NCBI GenBank assembly: GCA_964646395.1
Contig: CAZYEM010000001.1
Span: 1-63,641 of the forward strand
DNA length: 63,641 bases
Direction of reading: 5' to 3'
From: an uncultured Bacteroides sp.
Lineage (GTDB): Bacteria; Bacteroidota; Bacteroidia; Bacteroidales; JACABE01
Positions 13,197 to 42,300 of the stretch are shown piece after piece. The position numbers and the translations under genes were made by a program. The notes beneath the pieces are model-generated. The model was not told the DNA's origin, made no database searches, and saw nothing but the letters and a program-made list of their open reading frames with translations. The stretch's first letter is position 1; each line of letters begins with the position of its first letter.

Positions 13197-13198
13197 GT

Positions 13199-14725: not shown

Positions 14726-14735
14726 TTTCTATTTT

Positions 14736-14915: not shown

Positions 14916-14938
14916 TTTTTTAGTTTTTATTTTATATA

Positions 14939-14946
14939 CAAATATA
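14939..14946 (-). promoter_or_regulatory. candidate internal -7 promoter element (TATATTTG on the minus strand)
   Basis: The reverse complement of CAAATATA is TATATTTG, which matches TAnnTTTG. It lies about 24 nt upstream of the ATG at 14915. Confidence 0.25.
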
Positions 14947-14965
14947 GTTAAATACTTGAAATTTC

Positions 14966-23702: not shown

Positions 23703-23721
23703 CTGATTATTTTTATGTGTT

Positions 23722-24240
23722 TTAGTACACTAATATTTTAACATATTCTCCTGTAACAAACGGAACGGCTGAAGCCACCGTTAAAGTTGCAGTTGCACTA
23801 TCCCATTTAACTTGATTTAAAACCGGAACACCTGATGTTATAATTTCTCCAACATCAATACCACCTCTACTCGCATACAACAATGATTTATTTAACGCTT
23901 GACTAAATGAAATTACAACAGAACCACTACTAGCAAATTTGCCAAATTGTTCTGGGAATCTTCCGTTGCCACCACTTGAAGGATTTACAACAACACCAGC
24001 AACACCCATCAATGCTTCAGCCTCAAACGCATACCCACCGCACATTCCATACACATAGTCTGTAAATCCATTTAAATTTATTCCTGTGTATCCTGTTGTG
24101 TTCACCCACTCTAATGCATTTGCTTCAATGCGAATTTTATTAGGCAATTCAAGATCATTTTCTTGATTTTGTTCAATTGCTTTTATAACAACTGCAACAG
24201 TTACTCTTGCTATATCAATTACCTCTGCTGTCGTTGGCAT
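23722..24240 (-). CDS. hypothetical virion protein (172 aa)
   Basis: ATG ORF lying between the capsid-proximal genes and the fibre genes, abutting its neighbour. Confidence 0.5.
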   Translation of the reverse strand: MPTTAEVIDIARVTVAVVIKAIEQNQENDLELPNKIRIEANALEWVNTTGYTGINLNGFTDYVYGMCGGYAFEAEALMGVAGVVVNPSSGGNGRFPEQFGKFASSGSVVISFSQALNKSLLYASRGGIDVGEIITSGVPVLNQVKWDSATATLTVASAVPFVTGEYVKILVY

Positions 24241-28399: not shown

Positions 28400-28885
28400 T
28401 TAATTAATGTGTTGATCAAATTCTAAAAGCTCTTTAGTGTATTCAGCAACTTTATACTTAGCTAACAAATCTCCGTAATGACCGACTGCTTTTACTTGAA
28501 TTGTAACGAATTGTTGTAAGAAAATGCCAACTGCGCAATCTTCTTCTTGGGCTTTCTTTTGTAGCTCTTTGTACATATTTAATACATCTAGCTCTGTTTC
28601 GTACCCAATTTCTAATGCATCGCCAATTGATTCAACTTTATCCTTCATTGCTTCAATTTCAGGCAAACTAGCGCAATCCCCCATATCATTCATAAAATCA
28701 ACGATAATTTGGTAATGCGTCAATTCTTCCGCACTTTCATCTAAAAAATATTTCTGACTACCAAAGTAACCTAATCTTTGTAATTGATTAGCTAAGTGCT
28801 TCCAAAGGTTAGATTGATATAATTCCATTTGAAGTGCCTCTTGCAAACCTTTTCTCAAGTTTGCTGACAATAAAGACTTTACCAT
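28400..28885 (-). CDS. ferritin-like protein (161 aa) with conserved ferroxidase-centre ligands
   Basis: It aligns by eye to FtnA/H-ferritin. ALQMELYQS supplies the E17 equivalent. ESAEELTHYQ supplies the ExxH pair. GYETELDVL supplies the E94 equivalent. FLQQFVTIQ supplies the Q127/Q141 equivalent. The FtnA site-C glutamates are absent, and the conserved Tyr is replaced by Trp. Confidence 0.75.
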   Translation of the reverse strand: MVKSLLSANLRKGLQEALQMELYQSNLWKHLANQLQRLGYFGSQKYFLDESAEELTHYQIIVDFMNDMGDCASLPEIEAMKDKVESIGDALEIGYETELDVLNMYKELQKKAQEEDCAVGIFLQQFVTIQVKAVGHYGDLLAKYKVAEYTKELLEFDQHIN

Positions 28886-28886
28886 T

Positions 28887-31241
28887 TTATTTTTCTGTTT
28901 TTGGTGTTTGTAATTGTTTCTTTTCGCTTACTACTATTCTAGCATCTGCTTGTATTCTTTGAGCAATAACTTTTGCTTCTTTTTGAATTTCTGCTTCTTG
29001 AATATCTTTATCCTTCTTGCCCATTTGGATAATGTAATCCCATTGCTTTTCAGCATTGATACGGGCAACATCGACTTCTAATTGAGTTTGTAATGTAACA
29101 CGCTTCTCTTGCTCTGCAACCTGTACTGCCATAGCATTACCTTGAGATGCTTCCTGAATTTTTTGTAATTCAAATTCTTGCAATTTCTCTCTGCGCTTTT
29201 TAATTCTATAAGCTAGAATCATAGAAGCCATTTTTAAATTTTTGGTACTCATTACCAAAATCTTATCTTCTGGCTCTATCAATCCTTGACTATCTCTTAT
29301 GTTTAATTCTTGAATTAACTGTTGTCTTTCAAAGTCAGATGGCACATCTTCAATAAAGATACCGAACTCATGAATTGAAATATCAGGATTAATTTGGAAA
29401 AATTTAACAGTTTCTTCACCTAATGATCTAGCGTAACCTTCTACCTTGCCTAATTTAACTGCAATTTGAACTTTGCTAACAATGGCATCTGCTAAATCTT
29501 GTATTAATTGTTTATCTGCAAAACTTAATAGATACAAAGCATTATTTGTACTTTCCATTGCTGCATTTGCAACTGGTACTAATGTTTTAGCATTTGGAGT
29601 AGATCCGTCTGTTAATTCATTTAATCCAGATACTTGGCGCATCATATCCAAAGTGTTTTGCAACTCTTGATATAATTGACCAAACACGGCTAACTGACCT
29701 GATGCTTCAATAGATACAGGCTTATAATTAGGATTTTGACTTAGTAAGTCTGTTGATCTGTAAGGCACAACAAAGTTTGAGAAAATAAAATCCATAACTT
29801 TTGTAGGATTCATTTTTTCTCCACCACCACCAAAGTCAACTCCTTCAAGTGCATTTAAGTCTATGTTAATCAAATAAGGGATTAGCTTATTTGACATATT
29901 TTGTAATTTAAACCAAGTAAGGCTAGCTTTATCTTCAAGCGGGATTAGCCTTTCAGTGATTCCAGCAAAACGCATTTTATAAAAATTCCAAGAATAAAGC
30001 TGAATATTCAATTTAGTATCCCACCAAGATGATGGTTTTCTAATTTGATTCTCTGACATACCCCAATCATACATATAGTCTGTTTGGATAAGCCACTTGC
30101 ACTTATAAACTACCTTACGAGTAACCGGCATAAAAATAGGTTCTGCTTGACCTTTCATGCTAAAATCTATCATGTTAGGTATAGTCCCCATTTTATCAAT
30201 AACACCTTCTTTGGTTACAGATAGTTTAGTTGCGTCTTGGTATTTTGTCTTACCAAATCTTACATTACCTCTATTGTCGACTTCTTCTTTGTATGTATAA
30301 TCGTTCCAAGATAAAAATTCAAAATCTAAAACAAGTACTTTGAATCTATTCCAATATTTAGAATAATCAGTACCATACATAAAGTTTGATGGATTACCAA
30401 AACGACCTGCTACGCTTTGTACGATTTGATTCATTTGCTCTACTGTAAACCATGGCGCAAGATCTCCTACATATACTTCTCTAACTTCGCCCCAATGTAC
30501 TAAATCTGAAAAATCATTTTTAGCACAATAAGATAACACCATGTTTTCAGGGTTAATCTCTCTTAATTTTACTTGACCATTTTCATCAATATATTCTGTA
30601 TAACCGCCCATTCCAAAATCAAAAAGATTTTCTATTGTGCGTTTTCTTTTTTCTTCAAATTTATTTTGATACATAGCTAAAGATGCTGCCATCTCTGCTT
30701 CCATAGACATAACGTGCTTGTATCCAAATTGCTCCTCCATCTTTAATTGCTCTAAGTCTTGAGCTTCGCCCGGCTGAGGCGCTAACACTGGGCTGTTAAG
30801 TAATTCTTGATTACCTGCCTTTTGTGCCGCTTCTCTCATTAAAATCTTTACCTTCATTTCGGTAAAGTAATTATCTTCTTCACTTTTAGCAATTGGATCT
30901 ACTGCAAATGCATTTATCGCATATCTTCTTTGAACTAATTTTGATATTGCTATCTCTCTAAACTTTGTTAAAAAAGATGGCGGAGTCCAATCAATGTTCA
31001 ACCAAGTTTTATCTTGTTGCTCATCTACGTTTAAAAGTTTTTTATATTTAGTTGTACTTTGTCTACCTAATGCATATTCTCTAATTTCGTTCATTTTGGA
31101 TTGACCAAAATTTAACATATTGTTAGGAACATACCCTCTTGAATCACCCCAAGCAGCTTTGCAGTATTGTAGTATCCAATCGTATCCTTTTTCTCTAGGA
31201 TCTATCTGCTGGTTAGGGTATGTGTTGGTGGCCTGTTGCAT
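28887..31241 (-). CDS. portal protein (784 aa)
   Basis: The call rests on size and on position upstream of the scaffold and capsid genes. The C-terminus is a charged helical tail. No specific motif was verified. Confidence 0.6.
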   Translation of the reverse strand: MQQATNTYPNQQIDPREKGYDWILQYCKAAWGDSRGYVPNNMLNFGQSKMNEIREYALGRQSTTKYKKLLNVDEQQDKTWLNIDWTPPSFLTKFREIAISKLVQRRYAINAFAVDPIAKSEEDNYFTEMKVKILMREAAQKAGNQELLNSPVLAPQPGEAQDLEQLKMEEQFGYKHVMSMEAEMAASLAMYQNKFEEKRKRTIENLFDFGMGGYTEYIDENGQVKLREINPENMVLSYCAKNDFSDLVHWGEVREVYVGDLAPWFTVEQMNQIVQSVAGRFGNPSNFMYGTDYSKYWNRFKVLVLDFEFLSWNDYTYKEEVDNRGNVRFGKTKYQDATKLSVTKEGVIDKMGTIPNMIDFSMKGQAEPIFMPVTRKVVYKCKWLIQTDYMYDWGMSENQIRKPSSWWDTKLNIQLYSWNFYKMRFAGITERLIPLEDKASLTWFKLQNMSNKLIPYLINIDLNALEGVDFGGGGEKMNPTKVMDFIFSNFVVPYRSTDLLSQNPNYKPVSIEASGQLAVFGQLYQELQNTLDMMRQVSGLNELTDGSTPNAKTLVPVANAAMESTNNALYLLSFADKQLIQDLADAIVSKVQIAVKLGKVEGYARSLGEETVKFFQINPDISIHEFGIFIEDVPSDFERQQLIQELNIRDSQGLIEPEDKILVMSTKNLKMASMILAYRIKKRREKLQEFELQKIQEASQGNAMAVQVAEQEKRVTLQTQLEVDVARINAEKQWDYIIQMGKKDKDIQEAEIQKEAKVIAQRIQADARIVVSEKKQLQTPKTEK

Positions 31242-31317
31242 TATACTAATGAAGATTTAATTAACCAAAATTAATTAAAAGTAAATAAAAAAAACAAATT
31301 AAATTATATTAATTAAT

Positions 31318-31863
31318 TTAATATAATTTTCTGCCTTCCAATAAACTATCATAATTCATTTCCATTTTTGTGTTATATGAAAATCCGTTGTATTGAATAG
31401 CAATAAAAGGATCGGAAACCACATACTTCCCTAACCCCCCTAACGCACGGTCTATATGCTCATCTAAAGGCGTATTTAGGTATGTATCGTAAAACTTGCT
31501 GTTGACTATGTAGCAATGAAAACCAGTAAAATTATCTACTGTTTGATCTTCACGAATCTCCCCAATGTATATGCCACTCAAATAAATATCAAAATCTAAT
31601 GGCTTATTTCTTAAAAAGTACGAAAAACTATCCGGATTGGTAAAATGAACGTCATCCTCCATTATGCATATTTCAGGCAAACCTGTGTCTTTGGCATACT
31701 GAACGCATTGTTTATGAGCTAAATTAATTGCTTTTTTAACTGAATGAGAATCATATACGGCAGGGAAAAAAGAAAAGTCTTTGATGCCCTGCTCTTTAAA
31801 TTCATTCATTAACCTGTCAAATCGATCACCAGCATCAAAATTATGAATTACCGCTATCTTCAT
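31318..31863 (-). CDS. glycosyltransferase, GT25-like (181 aa)
   Basis: MKIAVIHNFDAGDRFDRL...ICIMEDDVHF shows the family-25 pattern of an N-terminal beta-strand, an R-rich helix and an EDD motif. Confidence 0.45.
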   Translation of the reverse strand: MKIAVIHNFDAGDRFDRLMNEFKEQGIKDFSFFPAVYDSHSVKKAINLAHKQCVQYAKDTGLPEICIMEDDVHFTNPDSFSYFLRNKPLDFDIYLSGIYIGEIREDQTVDNFTGFHCYIVNSKFYDTYLNTPLDEHIDRALGGLGKYVVSDPFIAIQYNGFSYNTKMEMNYDSLLEGRKLY

Positions 31864-32662
31864 TTAGATTCTGTATTATGTTGTTTAAAGCCCCTTGGTA
31901 AGTATAATACTTATTGTATATTTCTTTTATTTTTAGTTGCTTTTCAACTATGTCTATACTTGGGATACTGTTTAAAATTGGTACTATCCTATGAGCATCT
32001 TCAGCTTTTATGACTACCCCATAATCTTCAAAATTGGCATCAAAGCAATTAATAAACTCATCGCTAATATACACAGGTATAGTTTCGTACTGGATGCACT
32101 CGGCGATTCTAAAGCTGTTTAAACCATACCCTCTAGGGCATAATCCGAATATAGATTGACTAATAATACCACAAAACTTATTTACATCATGCTGCTCTTG
32201 GGATATGTAATAATCTGAATTTTGAATATTAAATACATAATTTCTTATTGGGTGAGTATTAGTGCCAATAAAAGAAGCAAAAATTGTTTTTTTACCATTC
32301 CATTTAAAACTATGTGGCATACAAAGCAAAGGTATCTCTATCCCTTCTTTCTTACTCATATTGAATACCAATATATCTAAATCTTTAAAGTCAACCAAAA
32401 CCCCATCATCGTATTGGCAAATTGTCCAATATCGTTGATTTCTAGGCAATGCATCTACATAGTCTTGCAGGCTTTTTCTAGCTACCGGATCATTCCCATA
32501 ATTGTTATTTACATGATATGATGTCCAATGGATTCTTAAATAAGCCCTCCCATTAAAATCTGGTATAAACCTAGAAGATACCCATTCTTCAAAAATAGTA
32601 TAATTTTCAAAAGGATAAACCGTGTTTATGGTAGGCATAAACTCCTTTGGTACGTCTATCAT
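31841..32662 (-). CDS. exostosin-like glycosyltransferase (GT47 family)
   Basis: GLCPRGYGLNSFRIAECIQYETIPVYISD matches the exostosin C-terminal motif CPxGxxxxSxRxxExxxxGxIPV. Confidence 0.65.
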   Translation of the reverse strand: MIDVPKEFMPTINTVYPFENYTIFEEWVSSRFIPDFNGRAYLRIHWTSYHVNNNYGNDPVARKSLQDYVDALPRNQRYWTICQYDDGVLVDFKDLDILVFNMSKKEGIEIPLLCMPHSFKWNGKKTIFASFIGTNTHPIRNYVFNIQNSDYYISQEQHDVNKFCGIISQSIFGLCPRGYGLNSFRIAECIQYETIPVYISDEFINCFDANFEDYGVVIKAEDAHRIVPILNSIPSIDIVEKQLKIKEIYNKYYTYQGALNNIIQNLNEDSGNS

Positions 32663-33294
32663 ATATTAAATTTTCTTACATAAAGGGCATCAGTCCACGT
32701 TTCGGCAACCCAATCGCCTGTTTCAACTCTTTCAAATCCGCGCTGCATCATGAAATAATCTAAATCAGGAATAAGCATACATCCTTTATAAGTTTCCTTC
32801 ATATTAACCTCTAGCAATGCGTAATCTATATTTTTAATCAAATCACCCATACCTTCAATAGCCAAATGCTCTGCACCTTGAAGATCTACGTTAAGAAAGT
32901 TTATATTTTTAAAACTATAACCCTTAAACAGAGTATCAACTCTCTTAGTTTTCATTGTTATCTGTTCTATGTAATGCACTTCTGGATGGATTAAAAGATG
33001 AGTACCAAGCTCAAACATTGATGAACTCTGGCTTTCATTATTTGATACATTAAAAACCACTTCTTCATTGTCTACATTACTTAGACAAGCGTTAAAAGCT
33101 CTTTGCTTTTCATAAGGTTCTATGTTTTTTACTAATTCTAAATAAACAGATGGTATTGCTTCGACCCACAAAACATCGCCCTTACAATAATTATCGTATT
33201 CTTTTCTTTCTTGCCCTGTTGATGCGCCTAAGTGAAGAACGCCTTTTATATCTAACTTATGCTTGCTGACTAAGTAATCAAATGATATCATCAT
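32659..33294 (-). CDS. FkbM-family SAM-dependent methyltransferase
   Basis: VLHLGASTGQE, VLWVEAIPSVY, VVFNVSNNESQSSSMF and NFLNVDLQGAEHLAIEG follow the FkbM (Methyltransf_21) pattern. Confidence 0.7.
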   Translation of the reverse strand: MMISFDYLVSKHKLDIKGVLHLGASTGQERKEYDNYCKGDVLWVEAIPSVYLELVKNIEPYEKQRAFNACLSNVDNEEVVFNVSNNESQSSSMFELGTHLLIHPEVHYIEQITMKTKRVDTLFKGYSFKNINFLNVDLQGAEHLAIEGMGDLIKNIDYALLEVNMKETYKGCMLIPDLDYFMMQRGFERVETGDWVAETWTDALYVRKFNI

Positions 33295-34304
33295 ATACTT
33301 TTGCTTTTATGTTTATTAACTTCTAATTCAATCCAATTATATAATTTAACCATGCCTTCCTCAAGTGGCTTTGTTGGACGCCAACCTGTTACCTTTTCTA
33401 CCAACTCATTGTTTGAATTTCTACCTCTAACACCTAATGCGTTTGATTCAACATTATTAATTGTTAAAGTTTTGCCTGAAATTTTAATAACCATTTTAGC
33501 CAAGTCATTAATTGATATCATTTCATCTGAGCCAATATTAACAGGATAAACATAATCCGATTGCATCAATGCTTTTATACCATCTAAACACTCGTCAATA
33601 AATAAAAAACTACGCTGTTGTAAACCATCACCAAATATTTCAATTTCTCCACCATCTGTTGCTTCTGCTACCTTTCTACACACTGCTGCTGGAGCTTTTT
33701 CTCTGCCGTCCTTGTAAGTACATTCAGGAGAAAATATGTTATGGAAACGACCAATTCTTACATCTAACCCTTTGTTTCTTCTGAAAGAATCATAAATCTG
33801 TTCTGATAGTAGCTTCTCAATGCCGTACACACTATCTGGCTTGCCATCCCAAGCTGAATCTTCTTTTAATGATGCGCTATCTAATGACTCTTGTAGTCTT
33901 TCGCTATAAGCACAAGCACTTGATGAAAAGAATAATTTCTTAACTCCACATTCTGACGCAGCCTTTGCCACATTTAAATTAATCATTGTTGAATCATAAA
34001 TAATATCTGCATCATTAACGCCTGTAAATACATACAAAGCGCCCCCCATATCGGCAGCTAATTGATACACTTCATCAAATGCATTAACGTTATCATGCCA
34101 TGTTGTTTGTTGGGGGTTCCATAAAGCCTTTGATACACTTGATGGATTACGCAAATCTAAAATAAATGCTTCATCTGCTTCAGACTTTGAAAATTCAGGC
34201 TGTTTGACATCTACTGATCTTACCCAATAACCTTCGCTTTTTAATCTTTTTACTAATTGCATCCCAATCATTCCATGACCGCCTAATACGCAAGCTGTTT
34301 TCAT
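33291..34304 (-). CDS. gme: GDP-mannose 3,5-epimerase-like SDR (GDP-L-galactose / GDP-L-gulose forming)
   Basis: There is a GGHGMIGMQL Rossmann motif and a YGIEK YxxxK motif. Long blocks match plant/bacterial GME as I recall it: LAADMGG, SSACAY, RIGRFHNIFSP, GREKAPAAVCRK, GDGLQQRSFLFIDECLDG, PVNIGSDEMISINDLAKMV and GVRGRNSNN. Confidence 0.8.
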   Translation of the reverse strand: MKTACVLGGHGMIGMQLVKRLKSEGYWVRSVDVKQPEFSKSEADEAFILDLRNPSSVSKALWNPQQTTWHDNVNAFDEVYQLAADMGGALYVFTGVNDADIIYDSTMINLNVAKAASECGVKKLFFSSSACAYSERLQESLDSASLKEDSAWDGKPDSVYGIEKLLSEQIYDSFRRNKGLDVRIGRFHNIFSPECTYKDGREKAPAAVCRKVAEATDGGEIEIFGDGLQQRSFLFIDECLDGIKALMQSDYVYPVNIGSDEMISINDLAKMVIKISGKTLTINNVESNALGVRGRNSNNELVEKVTGWRPTKPLEEGMVKLYNWIELEVNKHKSKSI

Positions 34305-34305
34305 A

Positions 34306-34908
34306 TTAAAATTTATTTAGTTTTAAATACCATTGTTTTTTAAACCACCATAATCCCCATCCGTTAGCAGTTTCTTCTGAATGTAAAACTTTTTCTGCCT
34401 CAAATTCTCTATCTGCAATATCTGATCTGATAAATATTTTTGGCACAATTTGACTTACTGCTCTATTTACTTCATCTGCATTAAAATCATGGCCTGCTAG
34501 TACGCCCTCATCTTTTACTTTATTATACCATTCAATTACTTCTTGCTTTGTTTCTTTGTATGTGTGTGATGAATCAATATAAACAAAATCTAAAAAACCA
34601 TCATTAAACATTTTAGCACACTCTAAACTTGGGTAAGGCATTACTTCTATATAATCACCCAAACCGCTTTTTATAATGTTTTCGTATATGGTTTTCATTT
34701 GGAAAAAACCACCGTAGCCCATATTATCTATTGCATAAATTTTAAAATCTTTACCCAAGTTTTTTAATTCTTGTGCTAGATATATAACACTATCGCCATT
34801 TGCAATACCGACTTCTGCTAGTCGTGCGTTGTTGGGTAACTCTTTTGCAATTCTTTGATAGAAATGCTGAAAATCAAACATAATTAAATCATTCATAATT
34901 TTATCCAT
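34306..34908 (-). CDS. class I SAM-dependent methyltransferase (Methyltransf_24 / CmcI-like sugar O-methyltransferase type)
   Basis: AEVGIANGDS is the SAM motif I. IYAIDN, FVYIDSSHTYKETKQE and GVLAGHDF are also present. Confidence 0.65.
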   Translation of the reverse strand: MDKIMNDLIMFDFQHFYQRIAKELPNNARLAEVGIANGDSVIYLAQELKNLGKDFKIYAIDNMGYGGFFQMKTIYENIIKSGLGDYIEVMPYPSLECAKMFNDGFLDFVYIDSSHTYKETKQEVIEWYNKVKDEGVLAGHDFNADEVNRAVSQIVPKIFIRSDIADREFEAEKVLHSEETANGWGLWWFKKQWYLKLNKF

Positions 34909-35630
34909 TCAGGTTTAACAATATCGCTAGTGTCTAATCCGCACCATCCTTCACTAAACCAAAACTGCGGAAAGATTACTTTTTTATCTTCATTTTTATT
35001 TAAATACGCACCCCACCAAGAGAATGTAGATGGAGAACATACTTGATGCTCACACCAGCTCATTTCTACAAGATCGGATTGCTCGTCTGTATTTCCAGAA
35101 TATTCACAATCGCTTCTATGCGCAAATGTTTCCATACACCAACTAATGTCATCTGAAAAGAATTTAAACTTATAGTTAGGGAACATAGCCATTGCCTTTT
35201 CATACCATTCTATTGTTACCTCCGGATGTTTATCTCTTAATGTTACATAATCGCCTCGTCTTACATGGATAGAAACATAGCCATCCATTTTTTTATATGG
35301 AAAATTTAACAAGTAAAGTATTTCATTACGATAGTTGTCAAAGTATTTAGCTGTTTGTCTGTACCCTTCAATTATTATATTCTTATCTTTCCATGATGAA
35401 TCGTATGGTAATTCTTCGTAAGAATGTTTTGTTTCCCATAAGTGAACTTTTTCAAGTCCGGGATTATAGCTATCATTAATTAAATGCGAGCAATAGATGG
35501 GGTTCCATTTTGGGTTGCTAGTTTCGTTTGGAACGGTAAAATTTAAGTCATGCCGTAACGCATAGGCCATAGCCGTAGCACACTCAAAAAGCCAGTTGCC
35601 CATTCTTCCCGCGTTGTTGAAGGTTACCAT
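34893..35630 (-). CDS. GT11 alpha-1,2-fucosyltransferase-family glycosyltransferase
   Basis: GRMGNWLFECATAMAYA corresponds to GGLGNQMFQYA. SIHVRRGDYV corresponds to HxRRGDY. FSDDISWC and SPSTFSWWGAYLN are the other family motifs. Confidence 0.8.
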   Translation of the reverse strand: MVTFNNAGRMGNWLFECATAMAYALRHDLNFTVPNETSNPKWNPIYCSHLINDSYNPGLEKVHLWETKHSYEELPYDSSWKDKNIIIEGYRQTAKYFDNYRNEILYLLNFPYKKMDGYVSIHVRRGDYVTLRDKHPEVTIEWYEKAMAMFPNYKFKFFSDDISWCMETFAHRSDCEYSGNTDEQSDLVEMSWCEHQVCSPSTFSWWGAYLNKNEDKKVIFPQFWFSEGWCGLDTSDIVKPEWIKL

Positions 35631-35650
35631 AGGGGATAAAGTTAATTAAT

Positions 35651-36346
35651 TTAATTTAATTCCCTAATTTTTTCTATTAATTTTTCTCTAAAATCTCCTG
35701 TTCTTTGCACATTATTTATATAATGCGATTGATTGTGGACTAAATGATTGTATCTTAACCCTTCAACTATATGGATAATTCGACCTGACATTAGCCAATT
35801 GTAATTCTGAAATAAGCTATCGCTGGTTACCGGATCTATTTCCGCATCCCATACTTCACAATAAGAATTTTTATTTACAAAATAGTTCATGCAATTCAAG
35901 CAAGTTTCAAACATTGACTTGTCTATATATTCCGGTAAGTTGTCTTTGGTTACAATTAGGTTAGCGTATTCTGTGTAATTAAACATTGGCATAGCCCAAT
36001 CTGGTGCCAATACCGTGTCTTTATCCCATTCTTGCTCATATATCTTGTCCAAATAGTCTGTGTCTATTTCATTGTCAGAATCAAGTATGATACAATAGTC
36101 TGTTGTTGATAGGCTTATAGCCACATACTTGTTTGCATAACAATCTCTGTTGCTTAGGTTTCTAAATAGTTTAACCTTTTTTAGCTTATCACATTCTTGC
36201 TTTAATTGGTTATAAATAGGCAAATCACTCATGTCGTCCACTATTACAATGTTTTTAACACGAGGATCGTCATATACCTTACTAAAACTTTTCAATGTCA
36301 TTTCTACCCTATTCCAAGTTGGTATACATATACAAATTTCTCTCAT
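35651..36346 (-). CDS. GT2-family glycosyltransferase
   Basis: ICICIPTWNRVEMT, VIVDDMSD and ILDSDNE (the DxD motif) are present. Confidence 0.7.
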   Translation of the reverse strand: MREICICIPTWNRVEMTLKSFSKVYDDPRVKNIVIVDDMSDLPIYNQLKQECDKLKKVKLFRNLSNRDCYANKYVAISLSTTDYCIILDSDNEIDTDYLDKIYEQEWDKDTVLAPDWAMPMFNYTEYANLIVTKDNLPEYIDKSMFETCLNCMNYFVNKNSYCEVWDAEIDPVTSDSLFQNYNWLMSGRIIHIVEGLRYNHLVHNQSHYINNVQRTGDFREKLIEKIRELN

Positions 36347-36963
36347 AAATTTCCTAGTTTTTGATAATATCTTTGTTCTATAAATGGCTGCCAGTCAATA
36401 AAGGTATTGCCTATATCTGATACGCCCGGCCTTTGAGTGCATAAAAGTGGATAAGTAATGTAAGTTGTGCCATGGCATTGTATCTTATTTACAATGCAAT
36501 TGTCTATTGGAGCTTCTAAAACTGCCATCAATATCTCCTTCATCCCATGTAATGATATTGCCCAAGCATGGGTGGCATATGCGTTTTCTACTAATAAAAG
36601 GTTAGGTGATGCTCTTAATTTAAACCCCGTAGTACATTGCGCCCCAAGATAAAGGATATCCCATGTAAGAGGCAATTGCTTTACAACTTCATTCATTGTA
36701 TCGTTAGGGTTACCACAAGAATCAACAAACATAGCGTCATCTTCAAATATCAAGACTGACTCCCATTCGTTCTTTATCGCTTCTCTAAATATGTTCTCTA
36801 CTGTAATGCGCAAGCCTTCTGCTCCATTTTCATGCTTTGTGGCATTAATCAATTCGTATGGGATATTCCATTTGTAAAGTTGTTCTGCAATCTCTATTAG
36901 TCTATCTGTTCTTTCCGGCAAGTTTATGACAAATATTTTAGTAAAAAAGTTAGTCCAAGACAT
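36343..36963 (-). CDS. GT25-family glycosyltransferase (LgtB/Lic2B-like)
   Basis: KIFVINLPERTDRL and VLIFEDDAMF are present. The start codon shares nt 36963 with the TerL stop. Confidence 0.7.
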   Translation of the reverse strand: MSWTNFFTKIFVINLPERTDRLIEIAEQLYKWNIPYELINATKHENGAEGLRITVENIFREAIKNEWESVLIFEDDAMFVDSCGNPNDTMNEVVKQLPLTWDILYLGAQCTTGFKLRASPNLLLVENAYATHAWAISLHGMKEILMAVLEAPIDNCIVNKIQCHGTTYITYPLLCTQRPGVSDIGNTFIDWQPFIEQRYYQKLGNL

Positions 36964-39011
36964 TACGCTAGTTTAGTTTGTGGGAAAAAGTCAGTCAGTT
37001 TGAATTTGGCTTCCGGTTTTTTAAAGTTTGCTCTTTTATAATAATCTGCAAATAAAGTCCATCCGCCTCCCATTACTAAGTCAGATACCTCTGTTTCGTT
37101 TACATTAAACTTAATCAATCCATCATATTTATCGTCTATTAATTCTGGGTATATTATCTTTCCTTCCTTACCATGCGTTAAAATGTATTGTTCCCAAAGG
37201 TTCACCATTAGGGCTTTATTGTCCGCATTAGGGTCTACCCCGTAATTTGATTTTTCTGGCAATCTTATCAGAAACGCTTCGCAATAATTGTCAACAAAAA
37301 ACTTTCGCAATCCGCCATCCATTTTCGCCTCTATTAGCATTTGGCCTCCATAAGCAAAGCATTGCAGTACCATATCCATATGGAAAAGCTCTACCATCTT
37401 AGGTCTTGCGTGATACTTGGAAACAAACATCATATTATAAACCGGATCGTTTATGCCTATATCATATCTATTCAAAACTAAGCTAGTTGCCTTTGAACCC
37501 TCTCCATGTTCAACCACTGAGTTTTGGAATGGATCGCATCCCATTATAAACTGCACTGAATTTTTAGGTAAAAATAAATTACCCCTTCTTGTGTATGTTT
37601 CGCCTTTTGTTATCTTAAAATTCTTAGCTCTAGTCCATCTTGCTGCTTCTTTGCTAGTCGTTTCCCATACTGCTTCTGTAAATGGCACTCCGTCTTTCCA
37701 AGTCCAATTACCATATTCAAGCACTTCTTTCTCATTAATTTTGGCTATTTCATAAAGGTCGTTAAGCAATACCGCATCAAAATGGCAATTGGTATTTCTA
37801 AGCATGAACATCTCCCTTTCATCAAAAGGATTCATTCTTATCTCCTCCTCTAACTGAACGGCTTCTAATTGCTTACGCTTGGCTAATAAGTATTCTTTAG
37901 CTCCCAACCTAACATCTTCTTCATTCAAATCGCCTGCACCAACGTAATTATCAACTAAATATTTATATTGTTCTTCTGTTGGTGGCCCGATTACACTCAT
38001 GCCATATCGATCAATAAAGCCCAGATAACCATCATACGCGGGCGAGAAATATTTAACCAAACGATTTGGCGTCTTGGGATATTTCAAATGATCGGCAGCA
38101 TCCCATACTATCTTGAACTCCTCACCCCCGCTAGTCATACTATTCGAGGTTGATGGACATTCAATAAATCCTACTCTCTTGGCACCTTTTACCAATGTTT
38201 TACTTACAATGGATAAGAATGTCGAGAATGGCGTTTCTTTTGCCCATTTTCCGCCTTCATCAAATAAACCACGACTAAGACGACCAGAGTCATAAGAGTT
38301 CAAGGAAGGCGCACGATAATCAATTCTAGACCTATGTCCGGTATCATTATCTATTGCATTGCCTTTTGTGCCTCTAATGTCTACTGACTTATGGGCAAAC
38401 ACAAGTTCGCTTACACTGTCCTTATTGTTTAATTGCTTGGGCTTTAGGAATACCGGGAGCTGTCTGTAACCAAATGAAATCATGTTGGTAAAGGCTGCCT
38501 TGGCATCTATCTGCGTTTTACTCGTCAAACCGCAAAAGCTGTTCTTATAGAAAATACACTCGTAAATTATATTTGATGTCGCTTGGGAGGTCGCACCCTC
38601 ACGGCGTTTCTTACCCCTGACAACACCTAAACACCACGGCGTCTTTTCCCAATGGTCTAAAAATAAAAAGTATCTTTTATCCGCATCCCTGAAATCACCA
38701 TAGATATCATCCTCTAGCTTCCACCATTGAAGGTAAAAATAATGCTTACCTGTAATATATGTGGCTTTACCATTGTTGTAAAACCAAAACCCTTTCTTGC
38801 ATCTATCTACTTCTCTTGTGGCAAAAGCTGCCTGTTGTGCATCAAGCAAAGCGTTGCCCTCCTTATCGTATTCTACTGCCTGAAAAATATTAGGCAGTTC
38901 TTTTCTTCTCCAATACTGCTCGGCAGGATTAGATTCACCCCAATCTTCTATTTCAGTATCACATTCAGGTAGGGTAATGTTGGTTCCGTATATACTTATT
39001 ACTTCAGCCAT
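36963..39011 (-). CDS. terL: terminase large subunit
   Basis: The protein is 682 aa. The N-terminal ATPase region has a Walker-B-like GLFDEGGKW. The C-terminal nuclease region has FIMGCDPFQ. It is preceded by a small helical protein whose stop overlaps the start. Confidence 0.7.
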   Translation of the reverse strand: MAEVISIYGTNITLPECDTEIEDWGESNPAEQYWRRKELPNIFQAVEYDKEGNALLDAQQAAFATREVDRCKKGFWFYNNGKATYITGKHYFYLQWWKLEDDIYGDFRDADKRYFLFLDHWEKTPWCLGVVRGKKRREGATSQATSNIIYECIFYKNSFCGLTSKTQIDAKAAFTNMISFGYRQLPVFLKPKQLNNKDSVSELVFAHKSVDIRGTKGNAIDNDTGHRSRIDYRAPSLNSYDSGRLSRGLFDEGGKWAKETPFSTFLSIVSKTLVKGAKRVGFIECPSTSNSMTSGGEEFKIVWDAADHLKYPKTPNRLVKYFSPAYDGYLGFIDRYGMSVIGPPTEEQYKYLVDNYVGAGDLNEEDVRLGAKEYLLAKRKQLEAVQLEEEIRMNPFDEREMFMLRNTNCHFDAVLLNDLYEIAKINEKEVLEYGNWTWKDGVPFTEAVWETTSKEAARWTRAKNFKITKGETYTRRGNLFLPKNSVQFIMGCDPFQNSVVEHGEGSKATSLVLNRYDIGINDPVYNMMFVSKYHARPKMVELFHMDMVLQCFAYGGQMLIEAKMDGGLRKFFVDNYCEAFLIRLPEKSNYGVDPNADNKALMVNLWEQYILTHGKEGKIIYPELIDDKYDGLIKFNVNETEVSDLVMGGGWTLFADYYKRANFKKPEAKFKLTDFFPQTKLA

Positions 39012-39322: not shown

Positions 39323-39352
39323 TATAAGTTAGTTTTAGTTGTAACAAAGATA

Positions 39353-42300
39353 TTATTCTTCATCTTCATTATCAAATTCTAATTCACTTTTGGCTTCTTT
39401 TGTTGCTTTACGCTTTATTAAAAGTATAGCTTTTGCAATTTCTTCATTAGTCAATTCCTTTAAAGGAGTATCATTGTAACCTTCTTCATATAATTCTTTC
39501 ATTTTTTCCTCAATCAAAGAATCTCTAAGTTTTACAAATTGCTTAAATTCATCTTTGGTAATATTCTTTTTAACTGATTCAGGATTCATTTCGTCAGAGT
39601 TTTTAGCTCTCATTATTATTTCATCCATAGGTTTTAAAGCGCTTTCTCTGTAATAACTAGAATAACCCAATCCAACTATATTTGGCAACAATACAGTAAG
39701 TAAAGAAATAAAACCATCTTCTTTTGCCGCCTCATATGCATCATCTGCATACATTGGGTATATTTTAACTATTTCCATTGGATCAAAATCTTCACCAATC
39801 GAATTTTTACCAACAATTGCGCTAACAACATATGAATTATTTGGAGCTAATTTGTTTCTAAAAAATCTCAATGTGCTATTCCAAGCAAATGATGCCGATT
39901 CGCTTGCCTCAAATTTACTTTTTGCTGCCCTTGCATATCCCGCTTCTACCAATCTTAAAAAAGTTCTAATATATGCAGCTTGACCAGATGTAATATCATA
40001 TACTTTTTTACCAAACCTAAGCTGTAAAAAATCAGGCTCATCCGGATCAAACGATATCTTAGCTCCTGCTGCTGCTGCTGCTAAACCCAATGCAAGTATT
40101 GTAGACGTATTTGCTGCTAAATCTCGAAATGCCATTTTTTGCACCTCTTTTGGCATTTTTAAAAAATAAACAGGGTTTAGCATGTTTATATTTGAAGCCA
40201 TTAATCTAGCACCATAAAAAACAGACGAAGCTACTTTTTCTCCAGATTTTGTTTCCAAAACTTTTAACATATTACCACTACCAGTCATGTTCATGACATA
40301 TTTTGCCATTTCTTTATATTCATTTGGATCTGACTCTCTGGTAATACCCTTGCTTAAAAGATTTTTTGTTAATTTCGTATAAAGCTCATATCTAGCTATG
40401 TTTAGCGAAGCATCGGCTAACCTTTGAGATACAAGCAATGGTTCTTTCAAAATAGGAATTTCGAAAATAAAACTCTTTGGCAAAAGTTCATTTACATTTT
40501 CTTTGTTAATATCGTTATATCTAATACCATCTTCAACAGAATCCTTATATTCAGGAGCCTGATTAAGATTATACATTAATCTGTCATAATTTTTTTGACT
40601 AAATGCAGATTTGCCACTAGCATTTAAAAATTTTAAAGCAACGTCCCAATGAAGTGGGTTAAAGGTAATTTTAGACAATTGTCTTAACCAAATAGAAGCA
40701 TCAATTGATGTTTGAATTATTCTTCTAATACCCAAAACACTTTGCGCTTTATCCCAACCTTTTTCCCATTTACTTAACTTTGATTGTCTATCCTTATATC
40801 TTTCTAAAGTAATTTTCTTTTCAAGATCAATTAATTTTTCATATAATTCTTTAGTTTTTTTAGACTCTTTGTACTTTGGTTTTTCTACTACTTCTTTTTC
40901 AAAGTTTTTATTTTTTAAATCATCTTCAAGTTTGGCAATTTTTTTTCTAATAAATTTCTGCCTTTTTTCATTATAAGTTTTATCAGAATCATCTTTACCA
41001 ATGCTCGGAGATTGCTCCGACACTCCTTCTTCTGCAACTTCTTTTGATCTGTTTAATTCTCTTACTTCTTTTATTTTTCTTTCAAGTTCAACTATTCTTC
41101 TGCTCTTTGTAGCTAATTCTTTTTCTGTTTTAGCTTCTTCTTCGCCTTTTCTTGCAAGTTCTAATTGACCTAGTAAATCTGCTTCTCTTTTCAATAATCT
41201 TAAACCAGCATTAATTGTGTTTTCTGTTCTTTTTTGAGTATTATACTTTCCTGCAATAACATCAATGACATCTCTTTTTGTAAGACCATCTATTATACTT
41301 GAAAATTCTTTTTGAATTTCTGTTACAATATCATCTAATTTAGAAACACCTTCAGAAAATAAACTTCTTGCATATTTATTAATATGTGGTGCCGCTGCAT
41401 ATAATTGAGGAACCCCAAAGGTAGGCACTGCAAACAACCCGTAATCTCCCCTATTAACCTTTTTTATGGCTTCTCTTGCTGCTTCTAAAGCCTCTTTTCT
41501 TTCTTTTGCATATTCTTCCTTAGTTTTTTTAGGCTCTTTTTTAGCTTCGTATGAAAGCTGTTTCTCAATATCTTGCTCTATTGAAATTTCAAGATCTTCT
41601 TTTGCTTTTTGAACTTTTTCAAATTTAGATGTTTCTACAGATATCATTTTATCTGTTAATGCGAAACCCTTATCTTCTTGCCTTGAAAGCAAGAAATTAG
41701 ACAACGTATTAGCTTCGTTTATTTTTTTTACTATTTGAAAACTTTGCAATGATTTACCTGATAATGATCCTGCAGTTTGAGAATTGTCAACAAATTCTTT
41801 TACTTTTTCAAGCAATTCTTTTGAAGGATTATTCTTTAATTCCAAATCTAAAGCAGCTCTATATTCAGCCATGAATGCTACTTCATAATTTTTAAGAGGC
41901 TGACCATTTCTGATTTTTTTGTACAGATTTTCTATGCTTGCTTTCTTTTTAATCATCTTAGCAGCAATTTCTCTTAACATTTCATGTGTTTCAATCTCTG
42001 TTCCAGTATATTCTGGCAATCCTAAAGATTCTCTTAATTGATTCAATTCTTTATTTGTAATACCAAGATAATCTACATCTTCATTATCTAAACCTACATT
42101 TTCAATTTCCTCAGAGATTTCCTCAAAATCTTCGGCTTGTGTTGTTTTACCTTCTCCGGCAACTGCTTGCCCTTCGATTCTTGGTTCCACTCGTCTACGT
42201 TCACCCCTTCTTTCTCCAATTTTGCGCGGTTGGCTTGGAAGTACCTCCTCTGCGCTTCGCTTTTGTACGGCATCTTTTATATTTTTAAATGTTTGTAAAT

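Follow-up and report, generated by a model that had tools for sequence, protein, structure and literature searches.

The window analysed here, the whole stretch of 63,641 nucleotides, carries at 31318..36963 on the minus strand an island of eight co-oriented genes that abut or overlap and lie between the genes for the large terminase subunit (TerL) and the portal protein. From the upstream to the downstream flank, the features are as follows.

36963..39011, minus strand: TerL, upstream flank (PHROG 6681, E 3.8e-70)
36343..36963, minus strand: g1, GT25-like GT-A glycosyltransferase, 206 aa (Pfam PF01755, 36.7 bits)
35651..36346, minus strand: g2, GT2-family GT-A glycosyltransferase, 231 aa (Pfam PF00535, 48.7 bits)
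34893..35630, minus strand: g3, GT11 (alpha-1,2-fucosyltransferase family), 245 aa (PF01531, 76.8 bits; PHROG 2644, E 6.7e-39)
34306..34908, minus strand: g4, class I SAM methyltransferase, Methyltransf_24 family, 200 aa (PF13578, 59.4 bits)
33291..34304, minus strand: g5, GDP-mannose 3,5-epimerase (GME) homologue, SDR epimerase, 337 aa (Pfam; phmmer against GME)
32659..33294, minus strand: g6, FkbM-family methyltransferase, 211 aa (PF05050, 52.7 bits)
31841..32662, minus strand: g7, GT47/exostosin-like GT-B glycosyltransferase, 273 aa (PF03016, 39.6 bits)
31318..31863, minus strand: g8, second GT25-like enzyme, paralogue of g1, 181 aa (PF01755, 23.5 bits, cut-off 24)
28887..31241, minus strand: portal protein, downstream flank (PHROG 6547, E 1.5e-67)

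All eight open reading frames were found where a preliminary description of this DNA had placed them, and every shared nucleotide that it had listed proved correct. The TerL stop and the g1 start form the sequence TAATG and share one nucleotide (nt 36963); overlaps of 4 nt join g1 to g2 (36343-36346), g5 to g6 (33291-33294) and g6 to g7 (32659-32662), and longer ones join g3 to g4 (16 nt, 34893-34908) and g7 to g8 (23 nt, 31841-31863). The g2/g3 and g4/g5 junctions are gaps of 20 nt and 1 nt, and the portal gene follows g8 after 76 nt. The PHROG matches confirm both flanks, and the island lies inside the packaging/morphogenesis block. The closest cultured relatives of TerL, at 29% identity, belong to Flavobacterium, Cellulophaga and Tenacibaculum phages; a Gram-negative member of the Flavobacteriia is the probable host. 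Gene order by itself suggests that the island would be expressed late, together with the packaging and head genes. Two weak candidates for a Bacteroidota-type promoter-like motif, TTTG-N-TAnnTTTG, were seen.

39345..39376, minus strand: promoter-like motif upstream of a 103-aa gene, TerL and the island
31266..31298, minus strand: the same promoter-like motif in the 76-nt g8/portal gap

Since the motif has seven matches in the window against 4.2 expected, both sites are leads only. Promoter and terminator scans of the window gave a signal not above chance, and the terminator scan found no terminator-like site on the coding strand within the island.

The glycosyltransferase assignments draw on both sequence and structure comparisons. 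In g1 the FEDD motif is invariant (E74, D75 and D76); its profile retrieves COLGALT1 from the PDB (E 3.8e-9), and its AF2 model (pLDDT 94) is matched by Foldseek to COLGALT1 (2.6e-13), mimivirus R655 (1.4e-9) and a bacterial GT25 beta-1,4-galactosyltransferase (4e-8). The homology of g8 to the g1 family (hhalign, 97.6%, E 3.6e-12, 174 columns) shows the two to be paralogous GT25-like enzymes; g8 has an invariant MEDD motif of its own (E69, D70 and D71 unchanged). For g2, the matches to the NCBIfam models WcaA, EpsD and TuaG are weak and far under their cut-offs, and the sole match among PDB sequences, ppGalNAc-T4 (E 0.004), is not significant. The g3 translation contains both HVRRGDY, the HxRRGDY motif of the preliminary description, and STFSWW. 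The AF2 model of g7 (pLDDT 95.3) is matched by Foldseek to the GT47 domain of EXT1/EXT2 (E 2.5e-10) and to chlorovirus A075L (4e-5), its best viral model match being the exostosin-like protein of Synechococcus phage S-SKS1 (TM 0.86). No protein-priming enzyme was identifiable among the five island glycosyltransferases, a point against a virion-protein acceptor.

The epimerase g5 aligns with Arabidopsis thaliana GME (2c59) in phmmer at E 4.7e-78 and 266 bits, the next SDR class reaching 77 bits; the SSAC Cys, YxxxK and the GREKAPAA Lys, the catalytic residues, align with those of plant GME, and the motif blocks reported earlier are present in the translation. The FkbM assignment of g6 is backed by TIGR01444 as well (48.1 bits, cut-off 37.7). 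The methyltransferase g4 had been called CmcI-type, a label that fails: the CmcI family, PF04989, gives 17.3 bits, under its cut-off of 23.2, and Methyltransf_24 fits instead. The other seven family calls were upheld by the HMM, PDB, AlphaFold and Foldseek tests (g8 through its homology to g1), including those of GME, GT11 and FkbM, which such tests could have overturned.

All eight island proteins are acidic (pI 4.9-5.3) and none has a TM-like segment. The whole window was scanned for ORFs with more than three TM-like segments and none was found; the window thus encodes neither Wzx nor Wzy nor a polyprenyl-phosphate transferase, which agrees with the earlier observation that these and an exporter are missing. 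Across 2.4 Mb of related loci, no version of the island contains or adjoins a multi-TM ORF, a flippase, a polymerase, a priming transferase or a Gtr-type component. The O-antigen cassettes of temperate phages (GtrABC, Oac) are likewise phage-encoded sugar-modifying genes, but they specify integral-membrane proteins, lie next to an integrase or att site and are expressed from the prophage, whereas the island, without TM proteins or integrase, lies inside the late block. Lysogenic conversion is unlikely because neither integrase nor repressor was found among the window ORFs scanned.

From the missing exporter, the preliminary description had argued that the substrate is not a host glycan. This argument is weak, since an LOS-type route requires only the host lipid A-core, MsbA and Lpt and needs no phage-encoded flippase; missing exporters thus do not exclude a remodelling of the host envelope, which we consider the main rival explanation, possible but rather doubtful. 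Working on the cytoplasmic side of the inner membrane, soluble phage enzymes would modify host lipid-linked glycans, namely LOS-type lipid A-core, O-antigen or capsule units carried on undecaprenyl, or the general O-glycan precursor of Bacteroidota, and the altered product would then be exported by the MsbA/Lpt or Wzx machinery of the host. Bacterial GT25, GT11 and GT2 enzymes are typical of LOS, LPS and O-antigen synthesis, which counts against a virion glycan, and the bacterial GT25 galactosyltransferase is a clear structural match of g1. However, the five glycosyltransferases are acidic and without membrane-association features, Gtr-type, Wzx and Wzy components are absent from every version of the island in the 2.4 Mb of loci, and a late-gene placement leaves a short time for a surface change before lysis.

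The evolutionary record of the island bears on the same question. Conservation was scored over 33 distinct island-bearing relatives, down to about 50% (51%) portal identity, and the position and gene order were identical in 33/33; both are kept even in lineages with TerL only 23-32% identical. TerL adjoins the portal gene directly in island-less relatives (Elemovirus; L039-L043 and L047), and the island sits exactly at this junction. The five glycosyltransferases are present in all 33 variants, with Spearman coefficients against portal identity of 0.98 for g7, 0.96 for g8, 0.94 for g3, 0.92 for g2 and 0.82 for g1, so that the first four diverge closely in step with portal. The remaining members are swapped, lost or multiplied across relatives: g5, the most freely exchanged, has a coefficient of 0.36 and is missing in 3/33 variants, g4 is also variable (missing in 4/33, with swapped alleles), g6 is replaced in one clade by an FkbM gene 30% identical, and some variants carry extra FkbM genes. 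Homologues of the core g2-g3-g6-g7 recur at two other loci. In L198 an unrelated TerL lies immediately upstream of them and large structural genes lie downstream, and in L204 they adjoin a tape-measure-like gene and an ORF with a weak resemblance to TerL. The island is not a recent moron, the set having long been kept among relatives. Its vertical inheritance as a core of the packaging/head block in 33/33 variants, rather than as a variable module-boundary moron, speaks against envelope remodelling; the exchange of decorating genes, which resembles the diversification of O-antigen loci, speaks for it.

Peptide patterns derived from g7 gave three matches, all on MAG contigs, when run against one genome for each of 185,579 species. 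Among metagenome-derived proteins, 1476 homologues of g7 and 951 of g1 were found, and the best ones among the matches listed lie on contigs of at most 78 kb. This suggests that the g7 family may be phage-typical, and its near absence from bacterial genomes counts against a remodelling of the host envelope. The g1 homologues are named "involved in LPS biosynthesis" by JGI, an automatic naming that can be read in favor of an envelope target. Cyanophages S-SCSM1 and S-SKS1 encode true homologues, namely a GME-like epimerase (about 50% identity), a GT47-like enzyme (32% identity, TM 0.86) and, together in one cluster, alpha-1,2-fucosyltransferase and GT2 genes. Their clusters lie among auxiliary metabolic genes of large genomes, by tRNAs, hli, transaldolase and pstS, instead of among structural genes or between terminase and portal, and the S-SCSM1 paper takes the sugar genes in the usual way, as modifying the host cell wall and LPS, which again favors the host envelope. 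In contrast, the island forms a compact set that is coupled in translation to TerL and is passed on together with the structural module; the function of both sets is putative.

The adjacency to the terminase gene could also point to DNA, with the glycosyltransferases acting around packaging on hydroxymethylated phage bases as a defense against restriction. Phage GT-A and GT-B enzymes that place diverse glycans on 5hmC are known, and some of those mined from metagenomes lie near terminase and epimerase genes (bioRxiv 10.1101/2023.12.21.572611). Nevertheless, we find such hypermodification very improbable. Nearly all window ORFs of at least 100 aa were scanned with Pfam, and neither a thymidylate-synthase-like hydroxymethylase nor 5mYOX/TET nor a C5 cytosine methyltransferase turned up; no link to PADLOC or to DNA metabolism was seen for the island. 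Furthermore, the families reported for DNA glycans do not include GT11, GT25, GT47, GME or the two sugar-type methyltransferases, and the acidic island enzymes differ from DNA glycosyltransferases with their positively charged grooves.

Three genes elsewhere in the window are relevant to a protein acceptor.

9794..12667, plus strand: 957-aa multidomain glycosyltransferase, GT4-like domain, unknown middle and TibC/BAHT-like domain (Pfam Glycos_transf_1, Glyco_transf_9)
13199..14725, minus strand: collagen-like fibre protein, candidate acceptor (Pfam Collagen, 106.5 bits; 35% Ser+Thr, 21% Gly)
19689..23702, minus strand: 1337-aa fibre with collagen-like blocks and C-terminal S74 chaperone, candidate acceptor (Collagen, 107.8 bits; Peptidase_S74, 51.3 bits)

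Within the 957-aa protein, residues 614-928 align with TibC (4rap) at E 3.5e-52 (180 bits, 315 residues), and each of the four iron-finger cysteines has its aligned counterpart; judged by this homology, a protein O-glycosyltransferase domain of the TibC/BAHT type is indeed present, as had been described. Just as TibC adjoins TibA, its gene adjoins that of a long, repeat-rich and Ser-rich surface fibre (13199..14725), with a 185-aa ORF at 12639..13196 in between. Unlike the BAHT enzymes TibC and AAH, it is phage-encoded and fused to a GT4-like domain, most phage homologues being fused to a methyltransferase domain as well, and it is presumed to act on a tail fibre, not on an autotransporter. 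Both fibre proteins carry the collagen-like Gly-Ser/Thr-Ser/Thr repeats noted earlier. The two may be acceptors, and the BAHT-like gene may be functionally tied to the island.

The proposal that the BAHT-like enzyme, the fibres and the island form one pathway is not established. Apart from the window, only three contigs, all of a clade with 86% TerL identity, are documented to have both the BAHT-like gene and the island. Elsewhere, BAHT-like genes are mostly without nearby island genes. Near the lysin, 37/37 informative lysin-sharing relatives, which may or may not carry the island, have neither a BAHT nor a collagen-like ORF, and in several island-bearing clades the first fibre, as far as it is visible, has no collagen-like repeats. 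Mimivirus offers a parallel to the window in its GT25-fold enzymes (the GLT25D1-like L230, which goes with a lysyl hydroxylase, and R655) and collagen-like Gly-X-Y proteins, human COLGALT1 and R655 being the best structural matches of g1; L230 glycosylates viral collagen (PMC9614988). However, L230 acts on hydroxylysine, whereas the phage repeats are without lysine and no lysyl hydroxylase is encoded in the window; in contrast to the mimivirus pairing, the island is found in some clades without collagen-like repeats in the visible fibre as well.

The difference in fibre type between island-bearing clades would suit a further explanation, in which the product is a free or lipid-bound glycoconjugate, such as a small-molecule glycoside or a host cytoplasmic protein modified for takeover, or in which the members serve several pathways. 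FkbM and Methyltransf_24 enzymes also act in natural-product pathways. We hold this to be quite unlikely, as aglycone-forming enzymes are absent from the island, and five co-inherited glycosyltransferases with sugar-nucleotide and methylation enzymes in one coupled block fit a single oligosaccharide.

The best reading of the island is a phage-owned, soluble glycan-assembly cassette whose most likely acceptor is a virion protein, for which we estimate a probability of about 0.5. The gene families, the insertion site, the conservation, the recurrence of the core set, the TerL-g1 coupling, the solubility, the lack of membrane machinery, the apparently phage-typical g7 family and the viral precedents argue for it. 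So does the fact that the genome also encodes, near fibre genes, an enzyme of the TibC/BAHT type, a family that in many other phages is found immediately downstream of giant fibre-like genes. The preliminary description reached a similar interpretation, of which the families, the location, the lack of an export step, the BAHT-like enzyme and the fibres stand; apart from the CmcI label, its "complete pathway" was overstated, because the host has to supply GDP-mannose as well as all other nucleotide sugars.

Besides those compared above, two known systems come close to such a cassette. The capsid glycan of chloroviruses is built by soluble cytoplasmic glycosyltransferases, exostosin-like A075L among them. 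PBCV-1 (A064R, A075L, A071R, A111/114R, GMD/GMER) shares with the island soluble virus-encoded glycosyltransferases, among them one of about 280 aa that is exostosin/GT47-like, as well as methyltransferase activity and a GDP-sugar metabolism encoded by the virus. Its glycan is methylated and contains sugars of the fucose type, as is predicted for the product of the island. It differs in being a giant virus of a eukaryotic host, with an N-linked Vp54 glycan and scattered genes rather than an operon, and g7 and A075L, although matched by Foldseek, are only 14-16% identical with a low TM-score (0.32-0.37). In mycobacteriophages (Che8 gp110, Corndog gp38, Myrna), as described in accounts citing Freeman et al. 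2023 (PMC11600133, PMC12363180), tandem glycosyltransferases and an O-methyltransferase glycosylate the capsid and tail tube, in the cytoplasm, without export machinery and in phages without lysogeny genes. There the modification was shown by experiment, whereas for the island both a modification and its cytoplasmic site are putative. The island also differs in enzyme families and number (five glycosyltransferases of GT25, GT2, GT11 and GT47, a GDP-mannose 3,5-epimerase and two methyltransferases), in its place between TerL and portal, and in its probable Flavobacteriia host instead of an actinobacterium.

In our scheme, in which the substrates, the sequence of steps, the time of expression and most of all the acceptor are inferred, the soluble, cytoplasmic cassette would be expressed along with the genes for packaging and head. 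g5 would use host GDP-D-mannose to produce GDP-L-galactose and/or GDP-L-gulose, and the five Leloir glycosyltransferases would extend a single acceptor one sugar after another, g3 using GDP-L-fucose or its 6-hydroxy analogue GDP-L-galactose as donor; g4 and g6 would O-methylate sugars. Were the host envelope the target, the surface of the infected cell would be changed, for example so that superinfection is blocked or progeny are kept off debris. With the phage's own proteins as acceptor, be it the fibres rich in Ser/Thr or some other protein exposed on the virion, the result would be a glycosylated virion, in which the conserved glycosyltransferases may provide a constant backbone and the exchangeable epimerase and varying number of methyltransferases a lineage-specific decoration.

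The best-supported reading of the eight genes between the large terminase gene (TerL) and the portal gene is a soluble, phage-owned cassette for glycan assembly. In the scheme that we propose, the epimerase g5 would convert host GDP-mannose into GDP-L-galactose or GDP-L-gulose, the five glycosyltransferases would assemble an oligosaccharide, and the two SAM-dependent enzymes would methylate it. The ORF listing returned exactly the coordinates given in the preliminary description:

36343..36963, minus strand: g1, GT25 glycosyltransferase
35651..36346, minus strand: g2, GT2 glycosyltransferase
34893..35630, minus strand: g3, GT11 glycosyltransferase
34306..34908, minus strand: g4, methyltransferase
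33291..34304, minus strand: g5, homologue of GDP-mannose 3,5-epimerase (GME)
32659..33294, minus strand: g6, FkbM methyltransferase
31841..32662, minus strand: g7, GT47 (exostosin-like) glycosyltransferase
31318..31863, minus strand: g8, GT25-like glycosyltransferase

The stop codon of TerL and the start codon of g1 form TAATG, with nt 36963 common to both, and the remaining overlaps that had been described, of 4, 16, 4, 4 and 23 nt, are equally correct; g2 and g3 are separated by 20 nt, g4 and g5 by 1 nt, and g8 and the portal gene by 76 nt. The upstream flank is a terminase of PHROG 6681 (E = 3.8e-70) and the downstream flank a portal protein of PHROG 6547 (E = 1.5e-67). The island has the same GC content and skew as the adjoining late genes. 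A megablast search for near-identical DNA in cultured phages gave no match, and TerL is 29% identical to its counterparts in Flavobacterium (Elemovirus), Cellulophaga, Tenacibaculum and Maribacter phages, none of which is close; since these nearest cultured terminases come from phages of such hosts, a Flavobacteriia host is plausible. In Elemovirus, the portal gene directly follows TerL with no island between them, and the same holds, with gaps of 70-600 nt, for all IMG/VR relatives with a TerL identity of 54% or less. The eight genes are therefore an insertion at the TerL-portal junction.

We infer the timing of island expression from gene order only. Scans for sigma-70-type promoters and for terminators stayed at chance level, no better than shuffled sequences. 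A Bacteroidota-type promoter-like motif, TTTG-N18-21-TAnnTTTG, occurs on the minus strand upstream of the block formed by a 103-aa gene, TerL and the island (39345..39376) and again upstream of the portal gene (31266..31298), so that the two gaps carrying it bracket this block. The window holds 7 matches to the motif against 4.2 expected, which is no significant enrichment overall, and the two sites are a lead that may be due to chance. The 103-aa gene and TerL are closely preceded by a Lys/Glu-rich ORF of 2543 aa (39353..46984), with long predicted coiled regions and no Pfam match, possibly an ejected or internal virion protein. Inside the head module, between the portal gene and a scaffold-like gene, a ferritin/rubrerythrin-like protein is encoded (28400..28885; Pfam Ferritin, 62 bits). 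The gene of the major capsid protein is at 25812..27164.

Pfam and structural comparisons bore out most of the family assignments made from the sequence, namely GT25 for g1, GT2, GT11, FkbM, GT47 and GME. Protein g1 matches GT25 (PF01755) with 36.7 bits against a cut-off of 24, over residues 8-46 only, its profile matches the GT25 domain of COLGALT1 (E = 3.8e-9), and its AlphaFold model (AF2, pLDDT 94) recovered in Foldseek the human collagen galactosyltransferase COLGALT1 (E = 2.6e-13), mimivirus R655 (E = 1.4e-9) and a bacterial GT25 beta-1,4-galactosyltransferase (E = 4e-8); score, GT-A fold and an acidic DXD-type motif, here an invariant F-E-D-D, agree in placing it in this family. The second GT25-like enzyme, g8, falls just under the Pfam threshold (23.5 bits against 24), and its profile found only R655 in the PDB, non-significantly; the hhalign comparison (97.6%, E = 3.6e-12) nevertheless identifies g1 and g8 as paralogues, both of which have an E-D-D motif that is invariant, so that g8 is GT25-like by transitivity through its clear homology to the g1 family. 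A collagen-specific role of the GT25-like genes was rejected because the collagen-like repeats of the fibres contain no lysine and because, in several island-bearing clades, the visible part of the first fibre has no such repeats.

The GT2 enzyme g2 scores 48.7 bits (cut-off 23.3) and carries the DXD-containing ILDSDNE; a single-sequence PDB search with it gave an insignificant match to ppGalNAc-T4 only, and searches of the same kind with g3, g4 and g6 gave none. GT11, the alpha-1,2-fucosyltransferase family, is matched by g3 with 76.8 bits (cut-off 23.9), and the translation carries HVRRGDY (motif I, HxRRxD) and STFSWW (the C-terminal SxFSWW type); GDP-Fuc or GDP-L-Gal are candidate donors. 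The label of a CmcI-type methyltransferase for g4 had to be given up, as the protein scores 17.3 bits against a cut-off of 23.2 for the CmcI/rhamnosyl O-methyltransferase family (PF04989) and belongs instead to Methyltransf_24 (PF13578, 59.4 bits). The extended SDR (Pfam) g5 aligns to Arabidopsis thaliana GME with 266 bits (E = 4.7e-78), the next SDR class reaching 77 bits, and retains the catalytic residues of GME (the cysteine of SSAC, YxxxK and the lysine of GREKAPAA); NCBIfam holds no GME equivalog, the best match there being Fcl with 109 bits against a cut-off of 500. As judged from its sequence, g5 is a genuine GDP-mannose 3,5-epimerase homologue. FkbM membership of g6 is indicated by both PF05050 (52.7 bits against 22.7) and TIGR01444 (48.1 against 37.7). 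Finally, g7 matches Exostosin_GT47 with 39.6 bits (cut-off 33.4) and EXT2 in a profile search of the PDB (E = 2.6e-10); its AF2 model (pLDDT 95.3) superimposes on the GT47 domain of EXT1/EXT2 (Foldseek E = 2.5e-10, TMq ∼0.6) and more weakly on chlorovirus A075L (E = 4e-5), and its best match among predicted viral structures is an exostosin-like protein of Synechococcus phage S-SKS1 (TM 0.86, 32% identity).

Searching IMG/VR with TerL and with an alignment of g7 gave about 135 loci. The island has the same gene order and the same TerL-portal position in every contig with a TerL identity of at least 64%, and it is also present in lineages in which TerL is 23-32% identical and the portal and major capsid proteins are 57-72% identical. 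All five glycosyltransferases are kept in 33 of 33 distinct variants. Across these variants, the Spearman coefficient between the identity of a gene and that of the portal gene was 0.98 for g7, 0.96 for g8, 0.94 for g3, 0.92 for g2, 0.86 for g4, 0.82 for g1, 0.78 for g6 and 0.36 for the epimerase g5. Epimerase alleles are 98, 80, 62 or 48% identical independently of the backbone, and the gene is absent from 3 of the 33 variants; g4 is absent from 4, and one clade has a 30%-identical FkbM gene in place of g6. Some islands contain one or two extra FkbM genes or FkbM-Methyltransf_24 fusions. The pattern is thus one of a constant glycosyltransferase set with exchangeable sugar-modifying genes. An ORF of 214-236 aa with no significant Pfam match occurs in islands from which the epimerase is absent (L024:13424-14068 and L051:4079-4789) and may be an alternative sugar-modifying enzyme.

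Homing endonucleases also occur in some islands. Relatives carry HNH/NUMOD4 or GIY-YIG-like insertions either at the g2-g3 junction or in the gap from g8 to the portal gene (L003:13382-14086, L002:17755-18276 and L051:4786-5721), and in the window GIY-YIG-like genes with NUMOD motifs lie between fibre genes (15299..15988 and 18946..19689).

More distant contigs retain a core of g2, g3, g6 and g7 homologues with 30-45% identity. In one of them (L198), this core follows immediately after an unrelated TerL (PHROG 3717 / PHROG 2) and precedes the genes of large structural proteins, and in another (L204) its neighbors are a tape-measure-like gene and an ORF that weakly resembles TerL. Among bacterial and archaeal genomes, one for each of 185,579 species, a scan that depends on peptide patterns found only 3 relatives of g7, all on MAG contigs; it yielded no informative bacterial context and, within these bounds, evidence neither for an origin of the cassette in a host LPS locus nor fully against one. 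A collection of 5.8 billion proteins contained 1476 g7-like and 951 g1-like proteins, and among the top matches listed all were on contigs of 78 kb or less.

The eight island proteins have no TM-like segments and are all acidic (pI 4.9-5.3). Every ORF of the 63.6-kb window has at most 3 TM-like segments, so that Wzx, Wzy, a priming transferase and a transporter are all missing from the window, which confirms the absence of such genes noted in the preliminary description; nor was a multi-TM ORF found in or beside the island in any of its versions across 2.4 Mb of related loci. The island accordingly does not have the makeup of a Wzx/Wzy- or ABC-dependent polysaccharide locus, nor, its proteins being free of TM segments, that of a Gtr/Oac-type O-antigen modification system of temperate phages; no integrase was seen among the scanned window ORFs. 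It corresponds to virus-encoded, soluble glycosyltransferases that are independent of any encoded export pathway. Membership in a defence system was rejected, the island matching no known one. Glycosylation of DNA by the island is very improbable: phage pathways of this kind co-encode an enzyme that forms hydroxymethyl-pyrimidines, and Pfam detected no ThyS-like hydroxymethylase, C5-MT or 5mYOX/TET domain among the scanned window ORFs of at least 100 aa, which leaves these ORFs with no acceptor-forming enzyme, and the enzyme families and acidic charge of the island proteins do not fit such a role.

We consider it about as probable as not, with a probability near 0.5, that the acceptor is a virion protein. 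This is favored by the behavior of the cassette as a vertically inherited part of the packaging/head block, by its translational coupling to TerL, by its recurrence beside unrelated terminases, by its encoding only soluble acidic proteins, by the fact that lipid-carrier and export genes never travel with it, and by its near absence from the bacterial genomes scanned. The main alternative, which we consider less probable, is that the island remodels LOS, O-antigen or O-glycan precursors of the host and leaves export to the host. GT25, GT11 and GT2 enzymes are typical of LOS/O-antigen-type pathways, and cyanophages S-SKS1 and S-SCSM1 have the homologous genes in regions of auxiliary genes, the S-SCSM1 paper reading sugar genes like those of the island as an LPS-type modification of the host. 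A virion glycosylation system is suggested by context, namely position, conservation, solubility and precedents. The precedents have experimental support. Chloroviruses use soluble glycosyltransferases, including the exostosin-like A075L. For mycobacteriophages, two papers that summarize Freeman et al. 2023 describe tandem glycosyltransferases and an O-methyltransferase acting on the capsid and tail tube (PMC11600133, PMC12363180), and the GT25-like L230 of mimivirus acts on viral collagen (PMC9614988).

A second candidate for protein glycosylation is the 957-aa protein encoded on the plus strand at 9794..12667, which also has a GT4-like domain. The label of a BAHT-like enzyme that it had been given is right, because residues 614-928 match TibC strongly (E = 3.5e-52, 180 bits), all four iron-finger cysteines, in a CxxC...C...C pattern, align with those of TibC, and the generic GT9 Pfam model reaches only 25.7 bits. 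Enzymes of the BAHT family (TibC, AAH) are dodecameric, iron-containing proteins that transfer heptose from ADP-heptose to serine residues of proteins; no ADP-heptose pathway gene was seen in the window. The 3' end of the gene overlaps by 29 nt (12639..12667) a convergent, Ser/Thr/Asn-rich ORF of 185 aa (12639..13196, minus strand), which is directly followed by the gene of a collagen-like fibre of 508 aa with 35% Ser+Thr and 21% Gly (13199..14725). A second fibre, of 1337 aa (19689..23702), combines collagen-like Gly-Ser/Thr-Ser/Thr blocks with an S74 chaperone domain. The local GC content rises to 0.40-0.42 at 13000..15000 and 20000..24000, compared with about 0.33 in the rest of the window; the rises fall on the collagen-like Gly-Ser/Thr blocks of the two fibre genes and therefore reflect composition, not foreign DNA.

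BAHT-like proteins are widespread in viral contigs, in at least 257 stretches (the loci surveyed include L060-L138, L097 and L139). An architecture like that of the window lies beside collagen-like ORFs in 11 loci, and most BAHT-like proteins are GT4-methyltransferase-BAHT fusions that have no collagen-like ORF in their vicinity. Of 51 informative loci, 26 have as their next upstream gene one for a protein of at least 500 aa with 8-34% Ser+Thr; most of these proteins have 2000-3000 aa and 17-22% Ser+Thr, and 18 of the 26 end in an S74-like motif that marks them as giant fibres. Because such large fibre-like genes sit immediately upstream, it is reasonable, by guilt by association, that BAHT-like enzymes act on fibres. 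No description of phage BAHT homologues was found in the literature searched, and the wide occurrence of these protein glycosyltransferases next to giant fibre genes is a lead in itself. In two loci (L097:1183-13323 and L139, Microcystis phage Mel-JY01), a cytidylyltransferase-like gene and TerL follow the BAHT genes. In S-SKS1 (L221, 33079-57900), the g7 homologue shares a cluster with genes for a phosphoheptose isomerase, a fucosyltransferase and nucleotide-sugar epimerases; the isomerase belongs to the heptose pathway, and its presence in a phage is notable given the phage homologues of BAHT-type heptosyltransferases.

The neighborhood evidence does not tie the BAHT-like enzymes to the island. 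No island genes were found near BAHT genes elsewhere, and the two occur in one contig only in the window and in three contigs of the clade with 86% TerL identity. In the island-bearing clades with 79% and 73% TerL identity and in more distant ones, the first fibre is Ser/Thr-rich and its visible part is not collagen-like, the contig of the 79% clade ending 2.2 kb past the fibre match; the 10-kb flanks in which co-variation of island and collagen-like fibre was followed are too short for island-less relatives. The endolysin (Peptidase_M15_4, 7347..7853) is 77-98% identical in at least 278 viral stretches (loci L222-L301), and a BAHT or collagen-like ORF lies near it in 0 of 37 informative loci, which were retrieved by the endolysin irrespective of whether they carry the island. 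Most of these relatives carry different fibre modules beside the endolysin, a sign that the lysis and fibre region is strongly mosaic. We regard it as unlikely that uncultured aquatic Bacteroidota phages encode a complete two-tier system for the O-glycosylation of proteins in the cytoplasm, with priming by BAHT and extension by the island. Under this scheme, a TibC/BAHT-type enzyme fused to further glycosyltransferase domains would prime Ser/Thr residues of tail fibres, among them those in collagen-like Gly-Ser/Thr-Ser/Thr helices that lack proline, and the TerL-portal island would extend the primer into a methylated oligosaccharide with L-galactose or fucose. Lineage-specific swaps of epimerase and methyltransferases would diversify the decoration, and the glycan would stabilize or mask the fibres and contribute to host range.

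The island is not categorically new, since virus-encoded glycosylation machinery is known and similar cyanophage gene sets have been noted as "LPS" auxiliary genes. It differs from known viral systems in joining two GT25-type enzymes, GT2, GT11 and GT47 with GME and two methyltransferases in one coupled block, in its fixed terminase-portal site, in its long vertical history within a large uncultured clade and in the modular exchange of its decorating genes. No description of such a system in Flavobacteriia phages was found in the literature searched. To our knowledge, virion self-glycosylation by bacteriophages has been shown experimentally for only a few actinobacteriophages, and sugar genes of aquatic phages are routinely filed, without test, as auxiliary genes that modify host LPS. 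The cassette behaves like a core component of the structural module, at a fixed site and co-diverging with the portal gene across a large uncultured clade. Should the cassette indeed decorate virions, the phage particles of lakes and seas would commonly bear an evolvable coat of surface glycans, and this would bear on adsorption, host range, particle stability and grazing. Many genes now annotated as "LPS AMG" would then have to be re-examined, and the variable complement of epimerases and methyltransferases would provide a natural series linking genes to glycan structure.
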